Below, in pieces: positions 9,511-39,908 of a stretch of DNA of 64,000 bases (the stretch's first letter is position 1; each line of letters begins with the position of its first letter). The stretch is from an uncultured Gemmatimonadota bacterium. Its GTDB lineage: Bacteria; JAAXHH01. The stretch covers positions 1,536,001-1,600,000 of the forward strand of contig OX638340.1 in assembly GCA_951812955.1 (NCBI GenBank), in the 5' to 3' direction. The notes beneath the pieces are model-generated. The model was given only the letters and a program-made list of their open reading frames with translations. It was not told where the DNA came from and ran no database searches. Position numbers and translations under genes: made by a program.

Positions 9511-10971
9511 TTGCCCAAACAACCCAATATCGTCGTCCTGATGTCCGATCAGCAGCGACTCGACACGGTGAGTTGCTACGGGCTGAACGACGTGTGCCGA
9601 ACGCCCCACATCGACGCCCTGGCCGCGCGCGGCGTCCGCTTCGACTGGGCATTCACGCCGACGGCGATCTGCTCACCGGCCCGCGCTTCCTTCTACACAG
9701 GCCTCTATCCGCACAAGCACGGCGTTTCTGCCAACGGTCTGTGCCTGAACGAAGGCGTGCGCGGGGTAAATCACTACCTGGCGGATGCAGGTTACCGTTG
9801 CGGGTACGCCGGCAAGTGGCACGTGGACCAGGAGACCGGTCCGTCCGGGTATGGGTTCACCGGCAAGGATTTCATGGGCTACGGATTCCCCGGAGGCCGC
9901 CTGCTGCCAGGCCTGCAGTTTGGCGGCAGTCTGCACGGACACAATCATTATGCCGATTATCTGAAAGAACATGGATATGACCCGCCACCCACGGTCTCGC
10001 ACCGCTTTGTCGGCACCAATCCCTCCAATCAACGGCAGGAGATGTTCGCCCTGCACGAAGGGCCGGTGGAGTCGTGCATCGAGTATTTCGTCGCCGAAGA
10101 GGCCAATCGCGTCCTCGACGAGGTGGCCACCGGAGAGGAGCCCTTCTTTCTGTGGGCCAATTTCTGGGGGCCGCACAGCCCTTCGCTGGTCCCGGAGCCC
10201 TACTTTTCAATGTATGATCCGAAGGCCATTCCCGAACACCCGGGATACGCCGAGACTTTCGAGAATAAGCCCTACAGGCAGCAATTAATCGAGAAGCTTT
10301 GGGGGCTCGGCGACTATGGATGGGAGGGTTTTCAGGAAATAGCCGCGCGCTACTTCGGGCACTGCACGCTCATCGACGACATGGTGGGGCGGGTGGTGGC
10401 TCACCTGGAAAAACTGGGTGTGCTCGACGACACCATCATTGTGTATACCGCCGATCACGGAGACTGCCTCGGCGCGCACAAGCTGATCGAGAAGGGCGAG
10501 TTCATGTACGATGAGATCTACCGCATACCCCTCGTCATCGCCCATCCCGATTGCCAGGCGCCCGGCACGGCCTGCGACGAGTTCGTCTACCTGCACGAAA
10601 TCATGCTCTCATCGCTCGACGCCGCAGGGCTCGAAGTACCCGCCGAACTCGACGGCCAGTCCTTCCTCCCAGCCATCGAGGGACGACCCTTTTCGAACGG
10701 CCGGGAAGAAGTCTACTGCGTGTTCGACCGCCATTTCACCGTCGCCAACCAGCGCATGGTCCGTACCCGGAAGCATCAGTTCACCTTCAATTCGGCCGAT
10801 CCGGGTGAGCTCTACGATCTGCAGCGCGACCCCTACCAGCTCGACAACGTATACGGTAAACCGGAATATGAAACCGTGCGACAGGACCTGATGGGGCGGA
10901 TGGATCGCTACATGGAGGATTTGGGCGATCCGTTGCGCGGATGGTATGGGCGAATCAAGGGGGCGTATTAG
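9511..10971 (+). CDS. Sulfatase (Cys-type, formylglycine-dependent arylsulfatase family)
   Basis: TTG start with GAGAGGAG RBS. IVVLMSDQQR N-terminus and the C-S-P-A-R (CxPxR) formylglycine motif. No obvious signal peptide. Confidence 0.9.
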   Translation: MPKQPNIVVLMSDQQRLDTVSCYGLNDVCRTPHIDALAARGVRFDWAFTPTAICSPARASFYTGLYPHKHGVSANGLCLNEGVRGVNHYLADAGYRCGYAGKWHVDQETGPSGYGFTGKDFMGYGFPGGRLLPGLQFGGSLHGHNHYADYLKEHGYDPPPTVSHRFVGTNPSNQRQEMFALHEGPVESCIEYFVAEEANRVLDEVATGEEPFFLWANFWGPHSPSLVPEPYFSMYDPKAIPEHPGYAETFENKPYRQQLIEKLWGLGDYGWEGFQEIAARYFGHCTLIDDMVGRVVAHLEKLGVLDDTIIVYTADHGDCLGAHKLIEKGEFMYDEIYRIPLVIAHPDCQAPGTACDEFVYLHEIMLSSLDAAGLEVPAELDGQSFLPAIEGRPFSNGREEVYCVFDRHFTVANQRMVRTRKHQFTFNSADPGELYDLQRDPYQLDNVYGKPEYETVRQDLMGRMDRYMEDLGDPLRGWYGRIKGAY

Positions 10972-11092
10972 CCACTTCGTGGGTAGGTAAGGGCAGATCA
11001 AAGGGGCGTACAAGTAGGTTTGCGGGTGGTTCAGGTAGATAGGGGCGTATTAGTAAGCGTCAGTTGCGAAGTGGGACGCTAACCCAAGTGGT

Positions 11093-12007
11093 TCAACCAG
11101 ATTCCATCTCCTGCGCCCATTTTCTCAGAGGAACATCGTCCAGGTTATCCGAAAGCCAGTGCCGGGAGGCAGGATGAAAGTCCGGATCCGGACCCATCGG
11201 ATCACCTTCTGGAGACAGGGCACCCAGCAACTGCCGCCGGATCGGTGAGCTTCTTTCGATGAGTGCGGGATCCTGCACGTCGAAGTCGGTGGGCCGAAGC
11301 CAGCGGTAGTGGTATCCCACGTGCATGATCTTTCGCGTCTTTCGCGACAGGTTCGGGCCGACGCAGTGCCATACCGCTGTACGCCACAACACCGCCGAAC
11401 CGATGGGCAGCTTGAGTTCGACCGCACCTTCCGGATCGACCCCATTTTCCCGCCCGAACAATTCGACGGGCCTGCGTCGATGGCTGCCCGGCACCAGCCA
11501 CAAGTTGCCGCAGTTGGATTCGGTCATGTCGTACAGCACATAGAAGACCTTGACCTCCATGAACGGTAGGCGTCCATCCAGAGAAGGCGCCATAAACAGG
11601 TCATCGCTCGCCAGGTCGGGATGCCACCCGACATTGCGGTATCCTGCCTCGTGGTCCTCGCCCTTGCCGACACCCGAAATGCGGTCCTTCAGGTCCTCCG
11701 GATAGGGAGGCCGAACGTCCAGGTGCGTGGTCCGGATCTGGATATTCCAACCGATTGAGTCCACCACTAAAGGCAATATACGCGGATGATCGATGAGGTC
11801 GAGAAAGGCCTCGTGATGCGCCAGGGCATTTCGCACCGCAAAGGGTTCATCGGATCCCAGGCCTGTCTTCGACCGAATCCGGTCGCCAACCTCGTCGATG
11901 GCCCGGAGTAGGCGGTCAAGTTCCGGTTGGTCAAAGAATTTGTCGAGGACGACAAAGCCTTTATCGTCAAAGTCTTTGGCTTGTTGGGGTGTCATTGCGA
12001 GGGGCAT
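11093..12007 (-). CDS. Phytanoyl-CoA dioxygenase (PhyH) family Fe(II)/2-oxoglutarate-dependent oxygenase
   Basis: PhyH-like N-terminus (FxxxGFVVL) with a double-stranded beta-helix core (WHPD... H...). Confidence 0.75.
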   Translation of the reverse strand: MPLAMTPQQAKDFDDKGFVVLDKFFDQPELDRLLRAIDEVGDRIRSKTGLGSDEPFAVRNALAHHEAFLDLIDHPRILPLVVDSIGWNIQIRTTHLDVRPPYPEDLKDRISGVGKGEDHEAGYRNVGWHPDLASDDLFMAPSLDGRLPFMEVKVFYVLYDMTESNCGNLWLVPGSHRRRPVELFGRENGVDPEGAVELKLPIGSAVLWRTAVWHCVGPNLSRKTRKIMHVGYHYRWLRPTDFDVQDPALIERSSPIRRQLLGALSPEGDPMGPDPDFHPASRHWLSDNLDDVPLRKWAQEMESG

Positions 12008-12095: not shown

Positions 12096-13196
12096 TTACC
12101 TTGCCAGCCACGTGCTGAAGCGCTCGTTCATCTCTTCGCCGTTGTCGCTCCACCATTCCCAGTCGTTATGCAGGGCGCGGACCACATTCTCCGGGGCCGT
12201 GGGCATGTGCGGTTTCATGTCCACGCCCGTCTCGGCATGGGTAGAGATCAGCGGCATGGCGGAGCGGCGCGTCGGACTGTAGGCGATGTACCGGCCAAGA
12301 TCAGCCATTGACCGGGCGGTTGAAGCGAATTTGAGAAAACGGATTGCGGCTTCGAGGTTGCGCGTGCCCTCGACGATGCCATAGCCGCTCGTATTCAGGA
12401 TCTGGCTGTCCCAGAGGATGACGAAGGGTTGTCCCTCGAGTACCTGGGCATTGAAGATGCGGCCGTTGGCTGCCGTGGTCATCGTCACCTCGCCATCGGC
12501 CAGCATCTGCGGGGGGTAGGCAGCGGTCTCCCACCAGACGATGTGCTCCTTGATGGTGTCCAGTTTGCGGAACGCGCGGCGAACACCTTCCTCGGTGTCA
12601 AGCGTGGTATACACCTCTTCGTGCGGCACGCCGTCCGCCATGAGCGCGAACTCAAGATTGGCCACGGGCGTACGTTTCATACCCCGCCTGCCCGGAAACT
12701 TTTCCAGGTCGAAGAAGTCGGCTATAGTGGCGGGTTTCACGTCGCCAATCCGCTCGTCGTTGTATGCGATCATCCTCGAAAAGAAGATCTTGGTAACGCC
12801 GCATTCCGTGACCGTACCCTCGACGAAATCATCCGCCGCGGGCGTACCATCGGCACCCGGTGGCAGATCGACGACGTTAATAGGAACGAGCAACCCTTCG
12901 TCGCAACCCCGGACGAGATCGGGCATGTTCAGATCAACCACATCCCAGTACACATTTCCCATCTCCACCTGGGCGCGGATTTGCGCCAAACCCCCGGTGA
13001 AGTCCTCCAAGTTGATGTTAATGCCTGTTTCCGCTTCGAATCGTTCGTGGTAGCCTTTGTCACAGGCGCGGGCGTAAGAGCCGCCGTAGCTGACTACGGT
13101 GAGGGGTTGGGCTTGGGCTGTGACACGACCTGGGAATAGTGAGATCAGTATGATCGCCAGCGTCCCATACAACCCATTACAAATCCATCTTATCAT
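12096..13196 (-). CDS. ABC transporter periplasmic substrate-binding protein (PotD/PotF-like SBP family); no ABC permease or ATPase adjacent
   Basis: Signal peptide, followed by a periplasmic-binding-protein fold of typical size. Confidence 0.65.
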   Translation of the reverse strand: MIRWICNGLYGTLAIILISLFPGRVTAQAQPLTVVSYGGSYARACDKGYHERFEAETGININLEDFTGGLAQIRAQVEMGNVYWDVVDLNMPDLVRGCDEGLLVPINVVDLPPGADGTPAADDFVEGTVTECGVTKIFFSRMIAYNDERIGDVKPATIADFFDLEKFPGRRGMKRTPVANLEFALMADGVPHEEVYTTLDTEEGVRRAFRKLDTIKEHIVWWETAAYPPQMLADGEVTMTTAANGRIFNAQVLEGQPFVILWDSQILNTSGYGIVEGTRNLEAAIRFLKFASTARSMADLGRYIAYSPTRRSAMPLISTHAETGVDMKPHMPTAPENVVRALHNDWEWWSDNGEEMNERFSTWLAR

Positions 13197-13793
13197 TTTT
13201 GTTCCAGCCAGAGCATTTCGAATTAGGCTATGACTAAAGTGTGGATTTCGTTTGTGACTAGGTATGAGGTATGGTTATGAATCTTACACAGACCGAGTCG
13301 TCAGTTTTATCTATAAGGTATCTACGGTGAAATGCAATCTACATTTACTGGAGAATGCCAGAAGGAATCAAATCAAAGAGCCATGTATCAAGCATCAAGA
13401 AATTGTGGCGTAGGAACGTGGATCTGAATTGAATACGTCAATCGTGTACAAAATGACAGTCGGAATACTCAATAGCCGTATCCCTGGTAAAAATCATCAT
13501 CGTTAACCTATAATGTGAAAATTGACAACCATGTCGTCATAAAACTATGAAATCTTACAACATGGTATACAAAATACGTAATACCAACCTAGCCGATCGC
13601 TTGCTCCGAACATCACCCAACCGTTTGCCCAACATTCCCCGCAACTACGCAGATCAGCGCATTAGCGTGCATGCAAAATATCGATATTTATACGGATAGT
13701 TTACGAGATTATTGCTATTCCCCCGACTGGTATGATACATACCTTGTGTAGTATGAGCATGCTGGTGATATCTCATCAAAGGAACCAAGTAGA

Positions 13794-25306: not shown

Positions 25307-26878
25307 ATGACGACTATTGATTTCGATCGCGACGCACTTGCGTCGACTATGCCGGACGCGGTGTCCGACCATTTGCGGTCCTCCGGATTCGGCGACCCGG
25401 CCGACGCCTGGCGAATCCTGGAGCAAATCGACCGGCGCGTGGCCCCGCTTGCGCGCCCGGGAAATCCCTTCCCTGCGCTGGTCGAAGCGGCGGCTGCGTC
25501 CCTGGAACCCGACCGGGCCCTCATCAGCCTGCACACGCTCTTTACCCGGTGCGGTGAAGATCATGTCCCGGCCCTGCTGGACCTGTTGGCCATCCCGTCG
25601 GAATCCCGAGACGCCCTGCTCACGATCCTCTCGTGCAGCCCGTACCTCAGTAACGTGCTCATCCAGGACGCGGGGTTCCTGCTCGACACCTTTGCCGGCG
25701 ATTCGTGGCGTGCACTGCAATCCGCGGAAGAGTTGGATGCTGAACTGACGGAGATGCTGCAGGGTGTGTCATCGCCGGACGAGGCCATGAAACCCCTGCG
25801 CACGTTCAAGAAACGGACCTACCTGCGCATCGCGGTGTGCGACCTGATGAAGCAATCCGGAACTCCGGCAGTCCTGGAACGGCTCACGGACGTGGCCGAC
25901 CTTTGCCTGCAGGCCGCCCACGACGTGTGCGGCATGAAACTGGAGGCGCGGCACGGACGGCCGATGCTCGAAGGATCGAAACCGAGCGGATTCGCCGTCA
26001 TCGGCATGGGCAAGCTCGGCGGCAGGGACCTGAACTTCAGTTCGGATATCGACCTGCTTTACGTCTACGACGCCACGGACGGCCGCACCGAAAAAGACGG
26101 AACTTCCACCTACGAATTCTATCCGAAACTCGCCCGGGCCATAACGGACCTCATCGGACGGCTCACGCCGGACGGGCAAGTGTTCCGCGTCGACCTGCGC
26201 CTGCGTCCGGAGGGACGGGCCGGCGATATCGCCAACTCGATCGAGGGCTACCGCTGGCACTATGAGATCCAGGGACAGGCCTGGCAGCGGCAGGCGCTCC
26301 TGAAGGCACGGTGTTCGGCAGGAAGCAGGGAGGTGGGCGGCCGGTTCCTCGAAACGATCCAGCCCTTCGTGTTCTACCCCGCCCTCGACCAGCCGCTGAT
26401 CCTTGAAGATATCAACCACATGCGGGAACGGATCGCGAAGGCGCTGATCGAACGGGGCAGCGGCGATTACCACGTCAAGCTGGGTAAGGGGGGCATCCGG
26501 GAGATCGAGTTCATCGCCCAGGGATTCCAACTCGTCTACGGCGGATCCCAGAGTTGGCCCTGGGAACGCGGAACCCGCAGGATGCTGGCCTCGCTGGCGG
26601 AAAAGGGGTACCTGTCCGATGACGAGGCATCCGACCTGGACGACGCCTATCTCTTCCTCCGGGACCTGGAAAACCGTATCCAGATGACCTCGGGCCACCA
26701 GACCCACGAGATTCCCCAGGACCGCGGCGCCCAGACCGTCCTGGCCGGCATGATGGGCCTGTCCTGGACGACTCCTGAAGAAAGGGAGGCCGCGCCGGAC
26801 AGGATGCTGTCGGCCTACGCGAGGCACACCGCCCGCGTCCACCAGATCTACGACCGGGTCTTCCACTCGGCGATGTGA
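25307..26878 (+). CDS. glnE: Glutamine synthetase adenylyltransferase-like protein with a single GlnE nucleotidyltransferase domain (half the size of canonical bifunctional GlnE)
   Basis: GMGKLGGRDLNFSSDIDLLYVY nucleotidyltransferase motif. About 520 aa, against about 950 aa for two-domain GlnE. Adjacent to glnA. Confidence 0.7.
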   Translation: MTTIDFDRDALASTMPDAVSDHLRSSGFGDPADAWRILEQIDRRVAPLARPGNPFPALVEAAAASLEPDRALISLHTLFTRCGEDHVPALLDLLAIPSESRDALLTILSCSPYLSNVLIQDAGFLLDTFAGDSWRALQSAEELDAELTEMLQGVSSPDEAMKPLRTFKKRTYLRIAVCDLMKQSGTPAVLERLTDVADLCLQAAHDVCGMKLEARHGRPMLEGSKPSGFAVIGMGKLGGRDLNFSSDIDLLYVYDATDGRTEKDGTSTYEFYPKLARAITDLIGRLTPDGQVFRVDLRLRPEGRAGDIANSIEGYRWHYEIQGQAWQRQALLKARCSAGSREVGGRFLETIQPFVFYPALDQPLILEDINHMRERIAKALIERGSGDYHVKLGKGGIREIEFIAQGFQLVYGGSQSWPWERGTRRMLASLAEKGYLSDDEASDLDDAYLFLRDLENRIQMTSGHQTHEIPQDRGAQTVLAGMMGLSWTTPEEREAAPDRMLSAYARHTARVHQIYDRVFHSAM

Positions 26879-27007
26879 CGCTTGTTCGTTTGATTCCACC
26901 TGAATCAATCCATGCCGCTCGATAGTCAAGAAACCGACCGTCAATTCCAGCCCGCTTTACATTTACTTACCAGGTTTGTGATGCTGGTGGTGCTTATGGG
27001 TAAGCCT

Positions 27008-29233
27008 ATGAGCGATACCGATCTTTCATCTCTTGTCGTCCGTGCCCAGACCGGCGACCGCGCAGCCTACGAAGGCATCGTACACCGTTTTCAGGATATG
27101 GCGGTAGGCTACGCCTCCGCATTGCTGGGCGATTTCCACTTGGCTGAAGACGCGGCACAGGAGTCCTTTGCTGATGCCTGGACTGAACTTCCGCGTCTGC
27201 AGAAACCGGCTGCATTTCCAGGATGGTTCAAACGGATTGTCTTTATGCGCTGTAGCCGCATATCTCGCTCACGGCAACCGGTGGGACAAGTGCGAGAGAC
27301 GGCAGGGTCGCTGGTTGCTAGCGGTCCCGAGGAGGAACTAGAGGCGCGCGAAGAGAAAACCATGGTCATGGGAGCGATTGGGCGGTTGCCCGAGGAAGAG
27401 AGAATGGCGACGGTGCTGTTTTATATATCGACATATTCCCACCGGGAAGTCGGCTCGTTTCTGGGCTTGTCGCCGTCGACGGTCAACAACCGGCTGCGAT
27501 CGGCCCGCAAACGTCTGAGAAAGGAGATGCTGAAAATGGCTGAACGGGAATTGCCTGGGCAGGCGCCCTCGCGCGACGAACGCTTCAAGCAGCGGGTCGC
27601 ACAATTGCTTCAGCCCGAAGACATGAAGACCGACCGCTACCAGTATGGGATCGAAGCGGTGGACGGCTACGAGGCCTGGGCGCTATTCTGCGCCAGCGGG
27701 GCCGGCGACCTGGAACGCGTCAGTGCGATGCTGGACCGGGACCCCAGGCTGGTCAATGCCCAGTACTGGTACCAGTTCCCCATCCACATGGCAGTGCGCG
27801 AGGGACATGCGGAGGTGGTCCAGCTTCTGTTGCAGGCCGGGGCCGATCCGGGACAGTCGCGCTATACCTACAATTCATGGGATAAGTTGCTGGCCATCGC
27901 CGAGGAGCGCGGCTACAGGGGAGTACAGGCCCTGCTGGAGGCGGCGATGCGGGAGCGCTTCGGGTACGATCCCGCCTTTATCCCGTTGGCCGAGATGATC
28001 AAAGGCCGCGACCGGGCACAGGTAGAGGAGATGTTGGCAGATCATCCCGAGCTCATCCACGCTTCCGACGCATTGGGCAACGGGCCCCTGCACTGGGCGG
28101 CCGTGACGCGCCAGAACGACCTTGTGGACTTCTTCGTCGCACGGGGTGCCGGCCTGGAAGTCCGCCGCGCCGATGGTAAGACCCCGCTGCTGGTCGCGCT
28201 CATCGGAGACTACTGGTTCCGGTCACGTGACTTGCCCGCGGAAGCCCCGCAAGACCCATGGGTCGTCACCCGCCACTTACTCGCTTGCGGCGTGGATTAC
28301 GTCCTGAGCGTCGCGTGTGCGGCTGGCGATGAAGACCGGGTCGAGGCGGTGCTGGAGTCCGATCCGATCCAGGCCCGCACCCTCGATCCCGGAAGGCGCA
28401 GTCCGCTTGCTTATGCAGCTGGCAACGGCCACACCCGGATCGTCGAAAGACTGTTGGACCTGGGCGCAGACCCCAACCTGCCGGAAGAGAACGCGCCCCG
28501 TGGCGGCGCGCTATTCGGCGCGTGCTCGGGCAACCACCTGGAGACGGCCGGACTGCTGCTTGAACGAGGTGCCGATCCCAACGCCGAGGTTGACTCATCC
28601 GGCTCCTGTTTGACCATTGTCGAGTACAATCATGGCACAAAAGGACAGCGGTTACAGGCCCTGTTGCGCGAATTCGGCGCCGAGATACCACCCTTCGCCA
28701 TGGACGACGCGGCACTTGAACGGGCCGTTCGCAAAGGGGATGGCATCGTCGCCCATCCACAGTTCCTGCACGAGTTGATGGGACGGAACAATCCTGCGCT
28801 CGTCGGCGTATTCCTGGAGACTACGCCCGACGTGAGCGATCTTTTTCGACTGACGGACATCTGGGGCGGCAACTACCCGTCAGACCCCGATACGATCCGC
28901 GCCCTGGCCGACCACGGCCTCGATCTGTGCCGCGCAAACTGGATTGGGCGCACCTTTCTGCACGGTTGTGCCGAAAAGGGAGATGTCGACGCGGCCCGCG
29001 TTTTTTTGGAGTTAGGGGCAGATATTGAGGCTGTCGAGTTGGAATACGGAGGTACGCCTCTGGCTGCCGCCGCGCGCACCGGGAAGGTGGAAATGGTGCG
29101 TTTCCTGTTAGATCAAGGTGCCGATCCGGCCGCACCAGTCAAGTCGCCCTGGGCGCAGCCGATATATTGGGCGGAGAAGGAAGGACACGAGGATGTGGTA
29201 GCGCTGCTCAAGGATCGCATGAACCCTGGTTAG
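27008..29233 (+). CDS. ECF-type sigma-70 factor (regions 2 and 4) fused to a C-terminal domain of about 500 aa built from about 9 ankyrin repeats
   Basis: Sigma region 2 (LVVRAQTGDRAAYEGIVHRFQ...FxxWFKRIV), region 4 HTH (EERMATVLFYISTYSHREVGSFLGLSPSTVNNRL). Ankyrin repeats such as GNGPLHWAAVTRQNDLVDFFVARGAGLE and GRTFLHGCAEKGDVDAARVFLELGADI. Alternative upstream ATGs at 26981 and 26912. Confidence 0.75.
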   Translation: MSDTDLSSLVVRAQTGDRAAYEGIVHRFQDMAVGYASALLGDFHLAEDAAQESFADAWTELPRLQKPAAFPGWFKRIVFMRCSRISRSRQPVGQVRETAGSLVASGPEEELEAREEKTMVMGAIGRLPEEERMATVLFYISTYSHREVGSFLGLSPSTVNNRLRSARKRLRKEMLKMAERELPGQAPSRDERFKQRVAQLLQPEDMKTDRYQYGIEAVDGYEAWALFCASGAGDLERVSAMLDRDPRLVNAQYWYQFPIHMAVREGHAEVVQLLLQAGADPGQSRYTYNSWDKLLAIAEERGYRGVQALLEAAMRERFGYDPAFIPLAEMIKGRDRAQVEEMLADHPELIHASDALGNGPLHWAAVTRQNDLVDFFVARGAGLEVRRADGKTPLLVALIGDYWFRSRDLPAEAPQDPWVVTRHLLACGVDYVLSVACAAGDEDRVEAVLESDPIQARTLDPGRRSPLAYAAGNGHTRIVERLLDLGADPNLPEENAPRGGALFGACSGNHLETAGLLLERGADPNAEVDSSGSCLTIVEYNHGTKGQRLQALLREFGAEIPPFAMDDAALERAVRKGDGIVAHPQFLHELMGRNNPALVGVFLETTPDVSDLFRLTDIWGGNYPSDPDTIRALADHGLDLCRANWIGRTFLHGCAEKGDVDAARVFLELGADIEAVELEYGGTPLAAAARTGKVEMVRFLLDQGADPAAPVKSPWAQPIYWAEKEGHEDVVALLKDRMNPG

Positions 29234-29425
29234 GACATTGTTAGAAAGTAACATAAAAAACAAAAACGCCCGGCCCTGGATTAAACCGCTCCAGGACCGG
29301 GCTTTTTTCTGTATTGAACAGCGCATCTTTCGTCTCGCGCTGACGTTCAGGACAAGTCTGAGCACACGCGCACTCACGCCCACACTCTCACGCGCTCACA
29401 TCCACGCCCCCACTCACGCTTACAC

Positions 29426-32400
29426 CTACGCCCAGGCTCGCTTGACGCTCGACGTGACCCAGTTGCTCAGGTCTTCGAATATCGTATAGACCGTCGGCAG
29501 CAGGATGAGCGTCAGTATACCCGAGGTGGTCAGGCCGCCAACCAGGGCCAGGCTGACCGGACCCCACTGGTTGGCGCCGCGGTCTTCCACTGGACCGAAG
29601 AACTCGGGGAAGAGAAGCGGAGCCACCATGGGCAACAGGCCGAAGATGGTGGTCAGGGACGTCATCAGGATGGGCCGCAACCGATGCCGGCCGCCCAGGA
29701 GGAGGGCCTCGGTGCGCGTCATCCCCTCTCTGCGCAAATGGTTAACGTGATCGATGAGGACGATAGCGTTGTTTACCGCAAGTCCCGACAGAACGATGAT
29801 CCCCAGGTATGAGTTCGTGTTCAGCGTCGTGCCGGACAGGTAGAAAACGATGAAAGCGCCAACCAGTCCGCACAGTACCGACAACAGAATCGTGAAGGGC
29901 TGGATGAAGGACTCCGAAATTGCCGCCATGATCAGGTAGATGAGCACCACAGAGAGCAGGATGGCGAAGAGGAACTCGCCCTGCGATTCACGCATCATGT
30001 TGAAATTGCGCCCCATGCTCCACGTGTACCCTGGAGGCAGTTCGATACCCTCCATCATCTCGGTCACCTGGGTGTTGATGCGCCGCGTGCCCGGTCCCGT
30101 CGTGTTGCCGCCCACTTCCACCTGAGATTCCCGGTCATGCCGCTCGATGACGTCGGGTCCCTTCTGCCGCGAAAAGCTGGCCAAGTTCCCCATGGGAATC
30201 ATCCCGCCTTCAGCCCGTTCGAAAGTCATGTTCTGCAGTTTCTGCAAGCTGGCACGGTCCTCTTCCTCGAGGTGCAACAGAATGTCCACCTCGCGGTCGT
30301 CGGCCTTGAATTTGCCCCTCGCCCGGCTGCTCAGCGCAGCCTGCACGGTACGGGCCGCCTGTCTCGGGGAAATGCCGTAGGTCTGTGCCATGGCCCGGTC
30401 GACCTGCACCTGGATCTCCTCGTCGCCTCGCTCCAGGCTGGTATCCACGTCCTTCAGTCCTGGGATGACCTCCATCCGGGTACGGAGATCATCGGCGATA
30501 TTGGAAAGCACCGACATGTTGTCGCCGCGCAGTTCCACGTCCACGCCCGACTGCCCGCCGCCATATCGGCGCATCCGGCCGGGTCTCCACCGCACGCCGG
30601 CAATCTCGGGCAGCGAGCTGGTGATCCTGGTCTGAAGCTCGGTGGCAGACTCCTGCCGATCCTCGGGCGGAGTCAGCACGATGCGGAGATTTGCCCGGCG
30701 AAGGCTGCCGTAGGACGAAATGGACTCGATGTGGAATTCGTCCTTGCGGTCCAGCAGGAGTGTTTCGACGTCCGTAAAGACTTCCCTGACGTCCTCAATG
30801 CTGTAGCTGCCCGGCAGATCCGCGGCTATCGCTATATCCCGCGTAGGCGCCCTGGGCTGGAACTCCGTCTCGATGTTCTGGTACAGCCAGTAGCTACCGT
30901 AAAGGATCGTACCGAAGGCAATCACGGTTACGAACCGGTGGCGCAGGTTCCAGGCAAGGACAGACGTGTAATATCCGGAAATCCGCGCGAAGAACGCCGA
31001 GGGCTTGCCCAGTGGCCGGTTGAACAGCCTCGAGGAAACCAGCGGAATGAGCGTCAGCGCGATGAAGACCGCCGCCACCATGACAATGCAGAATGTGACG
31101 ACGAAGTCCTTCATGAAGAGCATGAACCGGCTGCCGCCACCCAGGAATACGAGGGGCATGAAGACGCAAAGGGTCGTCGCCGTGGCCGCGATGATGGCCA
31201 TGGTTACCTCGCGGGTGCCCACCACGGCTGCTATCCGCGCCGGCAGGTTGGATTCCTGCCGGTGGCGGTAGATGCTTTCAAGCACCACCACGGCAGCGTC
31301 CACGAGCATGCCCACCGCCAGCATCAGGCCCATGAGCGAGATCAGGTTGATGGATACCGTGGACCCCGCCCCCTGTCGGAGCAGATACATGAAGGTGAAG
31401 GTACAGATGATCGATATCGGTATGGCCAGGCTGATAATCAGCGTGCTACGTAAGTTGCGCAGGAAGAGAAACAACACGATGACGGCCAGCATGCCGCCCA
31501 GAAGTCCCGTGTTCCTCAGGTCAGAAAGCCGGTCCGTTATGCTCTGGGACTGGTCGAAGAATACCCGGGTTTCCAGGCCCGCGAACCGGGGCTGCGTCAT
31601 GAGTTCATCCAACACGGACTGGGTGCGTTGGGCCACGTCCACGATGTTGGCCGTGGACGTCTTGTATACCCGGATCGTGACTGCATCCACCCCGTTCAGA
31701 CGCTGGAAACTGTCGTCTTCCGGGTAGTCGAACCTCACCTCCGCCACGTCGCGCAGCGACAGGGACGTACCGGGTATGGGCAGGTTCGCCACCTCGTCGG
31801 CCGCCCGGTATTCGTTTACGGATCGGACCGAATACTTCCGTCCGCCCTCGGTGACGGTCCCGGCCGTCAGGGTGACGTTGTTCTGCACCAGGGTCTGGCT
31901 GAGATTGAACAGATCGAGGTTGTGGGACTGCAGCTTCTCGTTGTCCACGTGCACGAGCAACTGCTTCTCGACCATCCCGCTGATTTCCACGTTCGCCACG
32001 CCATCCACGCGCTGGATCTGCGGCTGGATCACCTTGGTGACGATGTTGTAGAACTCCGCGGGGTCCCCGCTCCACGCCACGCTGAAATTGTAGATGGGCA
32101 TATCGTTCGGGTTCCAGCGCCGGATCCGGATGCGTTCGACGTCGGCGGGCAGTTCGCCCCGGACCTGATCGATCCGGTCCCGGACCTCCATGGCCGCCAT
32201 GTTCATGTCCGTCCCGGTCTCGAACTCGATGCGCACCCGCGCGTTGTCGTCGCGGGAGTTGGACTCCATGCTCTTCATGTTGCTCAGCGTGCCGAAGGCG
32301 TCCTCCAGCGGCCGCGTAATCAGCCGTTCCACTTCCTCGGGCGACGAGGAGGGGTAGGGCACGCTGACGTTCAGGGACGGGAAGGACATGTCCGGCAGGA

Positions 32401-32506
32401 ACATCAACGGTAGCTTGGTGTAGGATATCATACCCAGCGTGACGACACTGACGATGATCATGATCGTCGTCACCGGGCGGTTTACGGAAAACTCGGCTAT
32501 GCTCAT
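29426..32506 (-). CDS. RND efflux transporter permease subunit (AcrB/MdtC-like, HAE-type)
   Basis: 1026 aa, 12-TM RND architecture with large periplasmic loops. GMLVDAAVVVLES in TM4. 4-nt overlap with the upstream RND gene. Confidence 0.9.
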   Translation of the reverse strand: MSIAEFSVNRPVTTIMIIVSVVTLGMISYTKLPLMFLPDMSFPSLNVSVPYPSSSPEEVERLITRPLEDAFGTLSNMKSMESNSRDDNARVRIEFETGTDMNMAAMEVRDRIDQVRGELPADVERIRIRRWNPNDMPIYNFSVAWSGDPAEFYNIVTKVIQPQIQRVDGVANVEISGMVEKQLLVHVDNEKLQSHNLDLFNLSQTLVQNNVTLTAGTVTEGGRKYSVRSVNEYRAADEVANLPIPGTSLSLRDVAEVRFDYPEDDSFQRLNGVDAVTIRVYKTSTANIVDVAQRTQSVLDELMTQPRFAGLETRVFFDQSQSITDRLSDLRNTGLLGGMLAVIVLFLFLRNLRSTLIISLAIPISIICTFTFMYLLRQGAGSTVSINLISLMGLMLAVGMLVDAAVVVLESIYRHRQESNLPARIAAVVGTREVTMAIIAATATTLCVFMPLVFLGGGSRFMLFMKDFVVTFCIVMVAAVFIALTLIPLVSSRLFNRPLGKPSAFFARISGYYTSVLAWNLRHRFVTVIAFGTILYGSYWLYQNIETEFQPRAPTRDIAIAADLPGSYSIEDVREVFTDVETLLLDRKDEFHIESISSYGSLRRANLRIVLTPPEDRQESATELQTRITSSLPEIAGVRWRPGRMRRYGGGQSGVDVELRGDNMSVLSNIADDLRTRMEVIPGLKDVDTSLERGDEEIQVQVDRAMAQTYGISPRQAARTVQAALSSRARGKFKADDREVDILLHLEEEDRASLQKLQNMTFERAEGGMIPMGNLASFSRQKGPDVIERHDRESQVEVGGNTTGPGTRRINTQVTEMMEGIELPPGYTWSMGRNFNMMRESQGEFLFAILLSVVLIYLIMAAISESFIQPFTILLSVLCGLVGAFIVFYLSGTTLNTNSYLGIIVLSGLAVNNAIVLIDHVNHLRREGMTRTEALLLGGRHRLRPILMTSLTTIFGLLPMVAPLLFPEFFGPVEDRGANQWGPVSLALVGGLTTSGILTLILLPTVYTIFEDLSNWVTSSVKRAWA

Positions 32507-39317: not shown

Positions 39318-39908
39318 CTAAAGATCGCCCAGCAGCGGCCGCAGACGCTTGCCGAGGTTCGTCTTGGCCCGGTGCAGCAGGGACTCCACCGCGGAAGGCG
39401 AACATTCCATTACCTGGGCGATGGACTTGTATGACATTCGTTCGAAATGGGAGAGGATCAGGGCGGTACGCTGTCTTTCAGGAAGCGCGTCGATCGCCTT
39501 CCCGACGATGCGTTCCCTGTCCGCCTGCTGAAGTTCCTCCTCTGCGCCGACGCTCCGGTTACCGTGCGACGTCGCTTCATCGGCGCCTTCGTTCCAGAAG
39601 TCGAGGGCAAGCCACTGTAACCGGCGTTTCCGGCGCCGGACGTTCAGGCACTGGTTTACCGCGATACGGTAGAGCCAGGTGCCCGGGTCGGCATCCCCTC
39701 TGAACCGGTCGTATGCTTCCATGGCCCGGACGAAAACCTCCTGGGTAATGTCCTCCGCCTCCTGCGGATGTTCCATGAGCCGGTAGCAGGTCTGGTAGAT
39801 GCGCGCATGCCAGGCATCGAAGAGCCTTCGAAAGACCTCCTGCCGGTCTTCGGGAGCGTCTTCCCGGCGATCTCCGGATTGCTGTTTTTCGGCCACTGGC
39901 AACGGCAC
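39318..39908 (-). CDS. ECF sigma factor (RpoE-like sigma-70 family)
   Basis: Region 2 (FRRLFDAWHARIYQTCYRL...EDITQEVFVRAMEAYDRF) and a region 4 HTH (SYKSIAQVMECSPSAVESLLHRAKTNL). Confidence 0.85.
   Translation of the reverse strand: MPLPVAEKQQSGDRREDAPEDRQEVFRRLFDAWHARIYQTCYRLMEHPQEAEDITQEVFVRAMEAYDRFRGDADPGTWLYRIAVNQCLNVRRRKRRLQWLALDFWNEGADEATSHGNRSVGAEEELQQADRERIVGKAIDALPERQRTALILSHFERMSYKSIAQVMECSPSAVESLLHRAKTNLGKRLRPLLGDL

Follow-up and report, generated by a model that had tools for sequence, protein, structure and literature searches.

ECF sigma factors have a core of about 170 to 190 amino acids with regions 2 and 4 only. Members that carry a fused extension are the sigma counterpart of "one-component systems," and few extension types have been studied: SnoaL, TPR, and Cys-rich. 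Among the groups with a TPR extension is ECF42, of which Sven_0747 of Streptomyces venezuelae and ECF-10 of Pseudomonas putida are examples. The ECF42 extension has been proposed to regulate the sigma factor by binding another protein (PMC8999054; main text of PMC7826278). In ECF57 and ECF01-Gob (Planctomycetes), which occur in PVC-type and related phyla, the extensions are WD40-like repeats, and ECF42 and ECF57 are the precedents for repeat-type protein-interaction extensions (PMC8999054). In proteins of the ECF41, ECF56, and ECF294 type, such as SigJ of M. tuberculosis, the extension is SnoaL, a small ligand-type domain that clamps sigma2/sigma4. Ankyrin is mentioned neither in the main text of PMC7826278 nor in the 2022 review (PMC8999054), and none of the ECF literature that we searched describes an extension of the ankyrin type.

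Within the window (the whole stretch of DNA analyzed, 64 kb), an uninterrupted open frame spans positions 26912 to 29233 of the forward strand. The ATG at 27008 is the start codon shared across orthologues, and an alternative ATG at 26996 is absent or out of frame in them. The resulting coding sequence (27008..29233, +), a single open reading frame supported by its retained start and by its homologues, encodes 741 amino acids plus stop. The initial annotation had read this gene as a sigma factor fused to a C-terminal ankyrin domain of about 500 amino acids, and the fusion is borne out, with a module of 556 amino acids; we refer to the gene as sigma-Ank. Neither a transmembrane (TM) segment nor a signal peptide is predicted in the protein. 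Because frameshifts interrupt four homologues in MAG assemblies, one might suspect that a sigma gene and an ankyrin gene were merged here through a frameshift or an assembly error. We consider the probability of such an artefact to be practically negligible, and the comparative data refute it. The window, five syntenic relatives, and complete chromosomes from long reads (HiFi-type) all show an unbroken frame, which recurs in dozens of distant homologues. Complete chromosomes with the fused form include OZ244790.1, OZ244619.1, and OZ220690.1. At least 69 fused proteins (a lower bound, with identities of 33 to 83%) were counted, and the sequence of the sigma/Ank junction is conserved. Both halves of the gene are under purifying selection, with dN/dS values of 0.08 to 0.23 overall (0.12 to 0.23 in the sigma half and 0.08 to 0.16 in the ankyrin half).

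The N-terminus aligns to canonical sigma-2 and sigma-4 regions, as had been claimed for it. Region 2 (27080..27256, +; residues 25 to 83) is recognized by Pfam PF04542 (Sigma70_r2), by TIGR02937, and by alignment to solved ECF sigma factors, and region 4 (27365..27523, +; residues 120 to 172) by PF08281 (Sigma70_r4_2, residues 120 to 170) and PF04545. The linker between them (27275..27325, +; residues 90 to 106) is predicted to be disordered and is the sole stretch of the full-length model with pLDDT below 50. The generic ECF model TIGR02937 is matched over profile positions 2 to 165 of 165 (61.9 bits; cutoff, 42.9), and the structures of SigW, SigE, RpoE, and CnrH can be aligned with the sigma part over its full length. 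No Pfam match to sigma r1.1 or r3 was found in the 741-amino-acid protein; only regions 2 and 4 are present, as expected of an ECF (group IV) sigma factor. These alignments indicate that the sigma half is complete. The named NCBIfam sigma equivalogs and subfamilies (SigW, SigE, SigM, SigK, RpoE, and others) all score far under their cutoffs, the best of them being PRK05602 (82.3 bits against 208).

The rest of the protein is an autonomous ankyrin module (27563..29230, +; residues 186 to 741), delimited by Pfam Ank matches, the structural model, fold matches, and stand-alone proteins. It has the tandem 33-residue helix-turn-helix solenoid of ankyrin-repeat proteins, and Pfam Ank-family matches span residues 258 to 737. 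In AlphaFold models, about 15 helical-hairpin units, arranged in four blocks, come after a conserved N-terminal cap (APSRD..F...QP..M.T..Y.YG..VDG..AW); the earlier count of about nine repeats fits those recognizable from sequence but falls short of the number in the models. When modeled alone, the module reaches a pLDDT of 93.7 and a pTM of 0.91, its fold matches are exclusively ankyrin proteins, and the same module is found as stand-alone proteins of about 550 amino acids. The models predict that it is a single rigid, autonomous body. The pTM of the full-length model is 0.79, compared with 0.91 for the module only. Because a value of about 0.69 would be expected, on a rough estimate, if the sigma quarter were unplaced, this comparison predicts that at least part of sigma packs against the ankyrin module. 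No clear sigma-specific interface emerged from the contrast in conservation between fused and sigma-less modules: column entropies of fused and stand-alone forms are correlated (r = 0.92), and the blocks at residues 219 to 278 and 660 to 719 alone are more conserved in fused proteins, by 0.13 to 0.26 bits.

Similar to ECF42, the sigma-Ank protein combines an ECF core with a long alpha-solenoid protein-interaction extension, the type of extension is group-wide, and an anti-sigma factor is absent. The two differ in that the extension is ankyrin instead of TPR (Pfam matches are to Ank families only, with no TPR match) and has about 556 rather than about 200 amino acids. Moreover, the conserved YCII-type neighbor of ECF42 is absent near sigma-Ank genes, and the ankyrin extension is widely free-standing, with repeated loss of sigma, a pattern not reported for ECF42. 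Proteins of the ECF41, ECF56, and ECF294 type likewise combine a sigma factor with a regulator (putative in sigma-Ank) in one polypeptide and dispense with an anti-sigma factor, and they show typical ECF autoregulation, which is probable for sigma-Ank as well. Here, in contrast, the extension is a large repeat scaffold, and Pfam gave no match to the SnoaL domain that marks ECF41, ECF56, ECF294, ECF295, and ECF205. ECF57 and ECF01-Gob resemble sigma-Ank in that their ECF core carries repeats of the protein-interaction type, but their extensions are WD40 beta-propellers, often with TM segments, whereas the sigma-Ank extension is all-alpha and TM-free. MzaA of the MZA anti-phage system (NCBIfam NF041931), which is named as a sigma-70-family protein, may be another protein that combines ankyrin repeats with a sigma-70-family domain: positions 13 to 89 of its 726-position profile match ankyrin repeats of sigma-Ank (residues 658 to 736), with a score of 65.8 bits, far below the cutoff of 800. 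However, the ankyrin-matching part is N-terminal in the MzaA profile and C-terminal to sigma here, and Mza neighbors are absent.

Upstream of sigma-Ank lies a half-size GlnE-like gene (25307-26878), and an RND pump gene (29426-32506) is convergent with it on the opposite strand; neither is an anti-sigma factor, in agreement with the initial annotation. A bidirectional intrinsic terminator hairpin (29262..29308; RNA fold of −27 kcal/mol, z = −4.6), with an A-run before and a U-run after it, is common to sigma-Ank and the convergent RND operon. The synteny of glnA, the glnE-like gene, and the RND pump is limited to close relatives. In a survey of homologues and their neighborhoods, no anti-sigma gene adjoins the sigma-Ank gene in the window or in any related clade, the clades share no conserved neighbor cluster, and the fused genes have no zf-HC2/RskA-type gene beside them; the conserved neighborhood thus offers no cognate anti-sigma factor. 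Pairing of stand-alone ankyrin proteins with a separate sigma gene was also considered and rejected: no sigma remnant or ECF gene was found within ±8 kb of the truncated or distant stand-alone genes, except at one Verrucomicrobiales locus.

ECF sigma factors act at bipartite promoters, in which AAC is common in the −35 element, and autoregulation is common among them. Directly before sigma-Ank, a Gibbs motif search and the derived PWM identified a family-specific bipartite promoter-like element (26965..26998, +), with TTACCAG (26967-26973) as its −35-like part and GGTGCTT (26989-26995) as its −10-like part. The general form of the motif is xxAACC or TTACC, a spacer of about 15 to 17 nt, and then GGnxCTT. 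A mere 12 nt separate the end of the element from the start codon, so that the transcript would have little or no leader. The Gibbs score was 350 compared with 262 to 279 for shuffled sequences, although kinship among the input sequences inflates it. The element is the top PWM match on both strands of the 64-kb window (21.8 bits, with 15.9 for the next). Across 2.4 Mb of loci, 21 of the 24 PWM matches are directly upstream of fused genes, including sequences outside the training set. The motif is found upstream of fused genes across phyla, is absent from sigma-less copies, and precedes no other gene in the window or in the ±8 kb flanks of about 80 loci. A metagenome scan added three more instances (3 family sites among the 120 matches listed, the rest being chance), with no non-self intergenic sites among the matches listed. 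In addition, a consensus scan found no generic sigma-70 promoter for the gene. Because the motif precedes only fused genes, it implies autoregulation, and the conservation of an ECF-type promoter before the gene suggests that the sigma domain works and is under its own control. Most likely, the sigma-Ank protein transcribes its own gene from the predicted promoter (positive autoregulation). The sequence AGAAGGCCTTCT is hypothesized to be an operator.

Fused homologues are found in MAGs of Latescibacterota, Poribacteria, "Gemmatimonadetes," Verrucomicrobiota, and Acidobacteriota; the hosts are sponge-associated and related uncultured bacteria, and lake and soil MAGs are represented too. The top 150 representatives include about 40 to 45 fused clusters at 50% identity, and several genomes hold two or three paralogues (up to three per genome). 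A C-terminal extension of 556 amino acids, where more than 50 would qualify, is conserved across these homologues. Divergences of the sigma and ankyrin parts are correlated (Spearman 0.60, parallel identity bins), which indicates one ancient fusion. From these comparisons, sigma-Ank proteins appear to be a coherent, ancient, and previously undescribed family. Sigma-less proteins are similar in abundance to fused ones (87 and 69, respectively), and the two forms are intermixed across the tree, switching at least 35 times. On sister chromosomes, the orthologue is truncated at its 5′ end, with no sigma remnant left and the downstream context unchanged; OX638377.1, OZ247580.1, and OZ242361.1 carry this truncated form. 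These patterns indicate that the sigma half has been lost many times. Ten sigma-less orthologues are intact open reading frames, with dN/dS values of 0.08 to 0.16 (about 0.1). Given that sigma-less modules are intact, are under the same constraints, and evolve under purifying selection, the module has a function of its own, and this autonomy indicates that the ankyrin part is more than a dedicated in-cis anti-sigma factor. The repeated loss of sigma could also reflect a dispensable sigma function.

We propose that the ankyrin module binds a cytoplasmic protein partner and that, in the fused form, partner binding would be linked to whether sigma is available to RNA polymerase. The sigma-Ank protein would activate its own promoter with no anti-sigma factor involved, and the sigma domain would add a transcriptional output to a partner-binding function that the module has independently. 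In our analysis, the best model is one of this kind, in which a module that binds a partner is tied to an autoregulated sigma factor, with a logic like that of ECF42. We put the chances at about even that the whole explanation is correct, that is, that a cytoplasmic ECF (group IV) sigma factor and a rigid 556-residue ankyrin module act in one polypeptide through autoregulation and partner binding. A search of the 64-kb window and of ±8 kb around about 80 loci turned up neither a partner protein nor any regulon member besides the gene itself.

The same observations can be read with the ankyrin module as the functional product, a cytoplasmic adaptor or scaffold, and the sigma domain transcribing only its own gene with no wider regulon; the amount of module made would then track free (or partner-bound) protein. 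We consider this possible, if unlikely. The confinement of the motif to fused genes, the lack of a conserved neighborhood, the sigma-less copies without a motif, and the repeated loss of sigma from a module that stays constrained all favor it. Nevertheless, the motif search covered ±8 kb per gene and ECF regulons are often dispersed, and the strong conservation of the DNA-recognition regions of sigma across phyla is equally expected with a real regulon. We know of no ECF sigma factor with itself as its sole target. In a more specific form, which we regard as quite unlikely, the sigma domain would be a "self-expression" accessory on an autonomous ankyrin adaptor, and the gene, as its own sole target, would form a one-gene feedback that measures occupancy. 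Occupancy by a cellular, host-derived, or phage-derived protein would then set the synthesis of the protein, and whether a lineage gains or loses the feedback would depend simply on whether the 5′ segment with sigma and promoter is kept or deleted. The initial annotation, which read the gene as a self-regulated or partner-regulated sigma factor, took the extension to act in cis where other ECF factors have an anti-sigma factor. The conserved extension, the missing anti-sigma factor, and the co-divergence of sigma and ankyrin parts agree with that claim, but as a full account of the extension it is not supported. In its pure form, in which, as in ECF41, the solenoid clamps sigma2/sigma4 until a signal releases it and has no independent role, the claim also draws on the packing suggested by the full-length pTM and on the ECF41 precedent (PMC8999054). 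It fares less well against the stand-alone modules, which are as frequent as the fused ones, are under purifying selection without sigma, and show equal site-wise constraints; furthermore, a rigid body of 556 amino acids far exceeds what is needed to clamp 185 residues. We judge the pure form distinctly improbable.

Sigma-less and fused ankyrin proteins could also act in trans, on each other or on other sigma factors; toward fused paralogues, the stand-alone modules would then be soluble factors of the anti-sigma or anti-anti-sigma kind. Four loci with tandem pairs of a fused and an Ank-only gene, one Verrucomicrobiales stand-alone gene divergent from an ECF/RskA pair, and the genomes with two or three paralogues are consistent with such partner switching. 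It nonetheless seems very unlikely, given that among about 25 stand-alone loci an ECF gene lies within ±8 kb in L002/L003 only, and that no second family member was seen on the chromosomes with truncated copies among the best 80 of 393 candidate relatives. Ankyrin proteins of sponge symbionts are thought to act on host phagocytosis (PMC8163846, PMC3909097), and sigma-Ank genes occur in the same lineages (Poribacteria and Latescibacterota) and match the same Pfam families as these "eukaryote-like" proteins, so that they are counted in surveys of them. The largely sponge-associated hosts could accordingly point to a secreted effector on the sponge host, and the partial matches to MzaA and to two PADLOC ankyrin models to an anti-phage component. 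We see either role as remote. An effector is at odds with an N-terminus that is a complete sigma factor, with the absence of both a signal peptide and a TM segment, and with the spread of the family to lake and soil MAGs; unlike the sponge-symbiont effectors, sigma-Ank would be cytoplasmic, sigma-fused, and autoregulated. As for defense, the MzaA match involves ankyrin residues only, the PADLOC models are generic ankyrin models, and no defense genes are nearby; membership in a defense system was rejected.

If sigma-Ank proteins couple partner binding to an autoregulated sigma factor as we propose, the known types of ECF extension would be joined by a large sensor that works purely by binding protein. 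The family is common across uncultured phyla, its promoter motif can be predicted and seems to be orthogonal to other promoters, and the sigma-less orthologues in sister genomes are natural "deletion mutants"; with these properties, comparative work and heterologous hosts both offer direct tests of what the extension does. These observations also caution against counting every ankyrin gene of a sponge symbiont as a host-directed effector. If the sigma domain does serve only the expression of its own gene, sigma-Ank would be the first sigma factor with itself as its regulon, and some of the ankyrin proteins that are called "eukaryote-like" in sponge symbionts would be cytoplasmic regulatory machinery.

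Positions 26912 to 29233 of the window (+ strand) form a single open frame with no interruption. Alignment of the upstream regions of orthologues identified the ATG at 27008 as the conserved start, yielding a protein of 741 aa; the alternative ATG at 26996, chosen by one gene caller, is in frame in the window, whereas relatives have it mutated or in another frame. Pfam matches comprise Sigma70_r2 (residues 25 to 83), Sigma70_r4_2 (residues 120 to 170) and five ankyrin families (residues 258 to 737). The protein also passes the generic ECF model TIGR02937 over the full model length (61.9 bits versus a cutoff of 42.9), no named sigma equivalog is near its own cutoff for it, and its residues 1 to 190 give a full-length alignment with ECF sigmas of known structure. 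[quoted passage not shown] A second ECF sigma gene of ordinary length (~39339 to 39842, - strand; ORF of ~197 aa) reaches 70.6 bits against the family's sigma HMM.

The fusion of ECF sigma and ankyrin (Ank) domains in this sigma-Ank gene (27008 to 29233) is real, as initially annotated. The gene order of the window is common to five relatives, whose neighbouring genes are 83 to 95% identical, and a search of 5.8 billion proteins retrieved 2291 relatives, many of them full-length fused proteins (41 to 99% identity). A genome scan limited to one genome per species (80 loci from 393 candidate relatives) found the corresponding fused frame in Latescibacterota, "Gemmatimonadetes", Poribacteria and Handelsmanbacteria, as well as in one Verrucomicrobiota MAG (Moanabacter) and one Acidobacteriota MAG (Pyrinomonadaceae); genomes often carry two or three paralogues. 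Both halves have low dN/dS (sigma, 0.12 to 0.23; ankyrin, 0.08 to 0.16), which, together with the continuous frame and the fused homologues, argues against a two-gene split or frameshift artefact. The sigma and ankyrin halves diverge in parallel across 69 fused proteins (Spearman 0.60, with nearly equal identity bins), as expected of one ancient fusion and not of repeated domain shuffling. The sigma domains of the family score 172 to 280 bits on the family HMM, whereas other ECFs encoded at these loci reach 38 to 122 bits. One 2.8-kb contig binned as "Gammaproteobacteria" (L006, JAPPHC010000045.1) carries two pieces of the Latescibacterota-type locus, a sigma-Ank gene 80% identical and an RND fragment 98% identical, and is probably mis-binned.

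The flanking genes are those initially described: glnA and a GlnE-like gene precede the sigma-Ank gene on the same strand; downstream, two convergent RND pumps are set apart from it by a strong hairpin followed by a U-run (-27 kcal/mol, z = -4.6). The GlnE-like gene (25307 to 26878, +; 523 aa), directly downstream of glnA, is half-size: its match to the 946-position PRK11072 profile is confined to positions 25 to 438, meaning that one nucleotidyltransferase half of GlnE is present. All five syntenic relatives keep this gene. This setting is limited to one narrow clade. When all ORFs of about 80 loci were clustered, no neighbour was conserved across clades and none was anti-sigma-like, in agreement with the earlier statement that no anti-sigma gene is adjacent. 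In Poribacteria, one or two more ECF sigma genes (476 to 494 aa) follow the sigma-Ank gene directly in tandem (10493 to 11977 and 12162 to 13592 in locus L077; similar in L078, L080 and L082). Because their ~300-aa C-terminal extensions have no Pfam match, they represent another uncharacterised extension-bearing ECF type.

Two clades with unrelated upstream genes have a common block consisting of TTTACCAGA, ~14 nt, GGTGCTTATGGGTAA, a few nt and the ATG. The bipartite pattern was found again before paralogues of 33 to 50% identity in other phyla, with "-35 AAC" variants that include GCGAACC, CGTAACC and TTGTAACRCC; a "-35 AAC" is typical of ECF promoters. An unbiased Gibbs search of 30 non-redundant upstream regions gave a motif score of 350 versus 262 to 279 for dinucleotide shuffles; kinship among some sequences raises this score, but the motif is common to clades with otherwise unalignable flanks. 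A PWM built from 21 sites has a single strong match in the window (26965 to 26998, 21.8 bits; next best, 15.9). In 2.4 Mb of loci, 21 of the 24 matches of at least 17 bits lie directly before fused genes, and none lies before a sigma-less ankyrin gene or any other gene. Among these 21 are sites outside the training set (23.6 bits in L045 and 22.3 bits in L026), and a metagenome pattern scan added at least three more instances before family genes among the matches listed, which are mostly chance matches. No sigma-70-type promoter was found for the sigma-Ank gene. Since autoregulation is common among ECF sigma factors (PMC7826278), the simplest reading of these sequences is that the motif is recognised by the sigma half, which would thereby transcribe its own gene. 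The end of the -10-like element is 12 nt from the ATG at 27008 in the window's clade (~26989 to 27010), which predicts an mRNA with little or no leader; other paralogues have a distance of 40 to 100 nt.

In distant sigma-Ank paralogues from several phyla, a perfect 12-bp palindrome, AGAAGGCCTTCT, follows the -10-like element at a constant spacing of ~5 nt. Eight of its 10 occurrences in 1.2 Mb of loci (at most one mismatch) are at that promoter position (L025:1109, L040:7933, L045:7741, L050:7966, L072:287, L074:7953, L076:4545 and L093:1079), and it is absent from the window's clade. The palindrome may serve as an operator that overlaps the transcription start and adds a second control layer.

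The ankyrin module also occurs without sigma: ankyrin-only proteins of ~550 to 570 aa account for about half of the close relatives. Latescibacterota chromosomes (6 to 7 Mb) have a second conserved locus, in which the gene is followed by a SASA esterase and an ABC transporter; it is fused in some species and sigma-less in sister species, where the orthologue starts inside the would-be last sigma-4 helix and nothing of sigma remains upstream. An insertion hot spot ~1 kb upstream of the gene (L007 to L019) holds small cargo varying by species (a DUF433/DUF5615 toxin-antitoxin pair, an AbiEi-like gene, an aldo-keto reductase and a 414-aa ORF), and sigma loss goes together with these 5'-flank rearrangements. 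All 10 truncated ORFs are intact, and their dN/dS (0.08 to 0.16 at dS of 0.16 to 0.7) is indistinguishable from that of fused copies. The 163 complete-module proteins include 69 fused, 87 alone, 4 with a partial sigma and 3 with another N terminus. Fused and stand-alone forms are interleaved in the module tree, with one stable stand-alone clade (n = 25) and at least 35 changes by parsimony, a rough figure given a neighbour-joining tree without support values and possibly wrong MAG gene calls. Per-column entropy is nearly equal in both forms (r = 0.92; means, 2.08 and 2.11); only the first and last module blocks show slightly higher conservation in the fused form. Within 8 kb on either side of distant stand-alone genes, no ECF gene was found except at one Verrucomicrobiales locus. 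Because sigma-less modules persist intact and equally constrained, the module must have some function independent of a covalently attached sigma, and the sigma-plus-promoter segment behaves like a 5' unit that can be detached.

A complete, constrained ECF sigma with its own specific promoter and no anti-sigma, joined to a rigid, autonomous ankyrin module, is either evident or strongly indicated. The module would bind a cytoplasmic protein partner, and in the fused form partner binding would be coupled to sigma availability; we prefer this model with moderate confidence, and the same logic has been proposed for TPR-bearing ECF42 proteins (PMC8999054). Its main rival, in which the sigma domain only autoregulates module production and has no other regulon, would account for the absence of non-self motif sites, but the space searched for such sites is small, and we consider it rather improbable. 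The initial annotation inferred a self-regulated or partner-regulated sigma factor, citing ECF groups whose extension acts in cis in place of an anti-sigma factor. The lack of an anti-sigma neighbour agrees with that proposal, but a pure built-in anti-sigma fits poorly with sigma-less modules that persist under unchanged constraints, and this role seems distinctly improbable. Less probable still is partner switching in trans between fused and stand-alone paralogues, an idea suggested by a few tandem pairs. Such pairs of a fused gene and an ankyrin-only or frameshifted paralogue (L024:8217-11799, L036:7920-12100, L040:3207-12355 and L052:7684-12617) may reflect local duplication and, possibly, functional pairing. 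The protein is unlikely to be a secreted effector, part of a defence system or an artefact; neither a hydrophobic segment nor a signal peptide was found in it.

Like other ECFs with regulatory extensions, the family combines a conserved extension, no anti-sigma and an extension type that follows sigma phylogeny; it differs from ECF41 in lacking a SnoaL domain and from ECF42 in lacking a TPR domain. Identity with MzaA was rejected (65.8 bits versus a cutoff of 800, in the Ank region only). The ECF re-classification, in its main text (PMC7826278), and a 2022 review (PMC8999054) name SnoaL, TPR, Cys-rich, DUF1835, multi-TM and WD40-like extensions and never ankyrin. Full-text literature searches combining ECF sigma factors and ankyrin returned nothing relevant. 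The family may belong to an existing minor ECF group.

The sigma-Ank fusion is a solid observation, and its mechanism is only partly resolved. As to context and SIGNIFICANCE, many source MAG names are typical of sponge microbiome studies, and from these isolate names we take the MAGs to be probably of sponge origin. Latescibacterota (including PAUC34f) and Poribacteria are classic sponge symbionts, whose ankyrin genes are classed among the "eukaryote-like" host-interaction factors (PMC8163846, PMC3909097). As the sigma-Ank family shows, some of these "eukaryote-like" ankyrin genes encode cytoplasmic, transcription-linked proteins.
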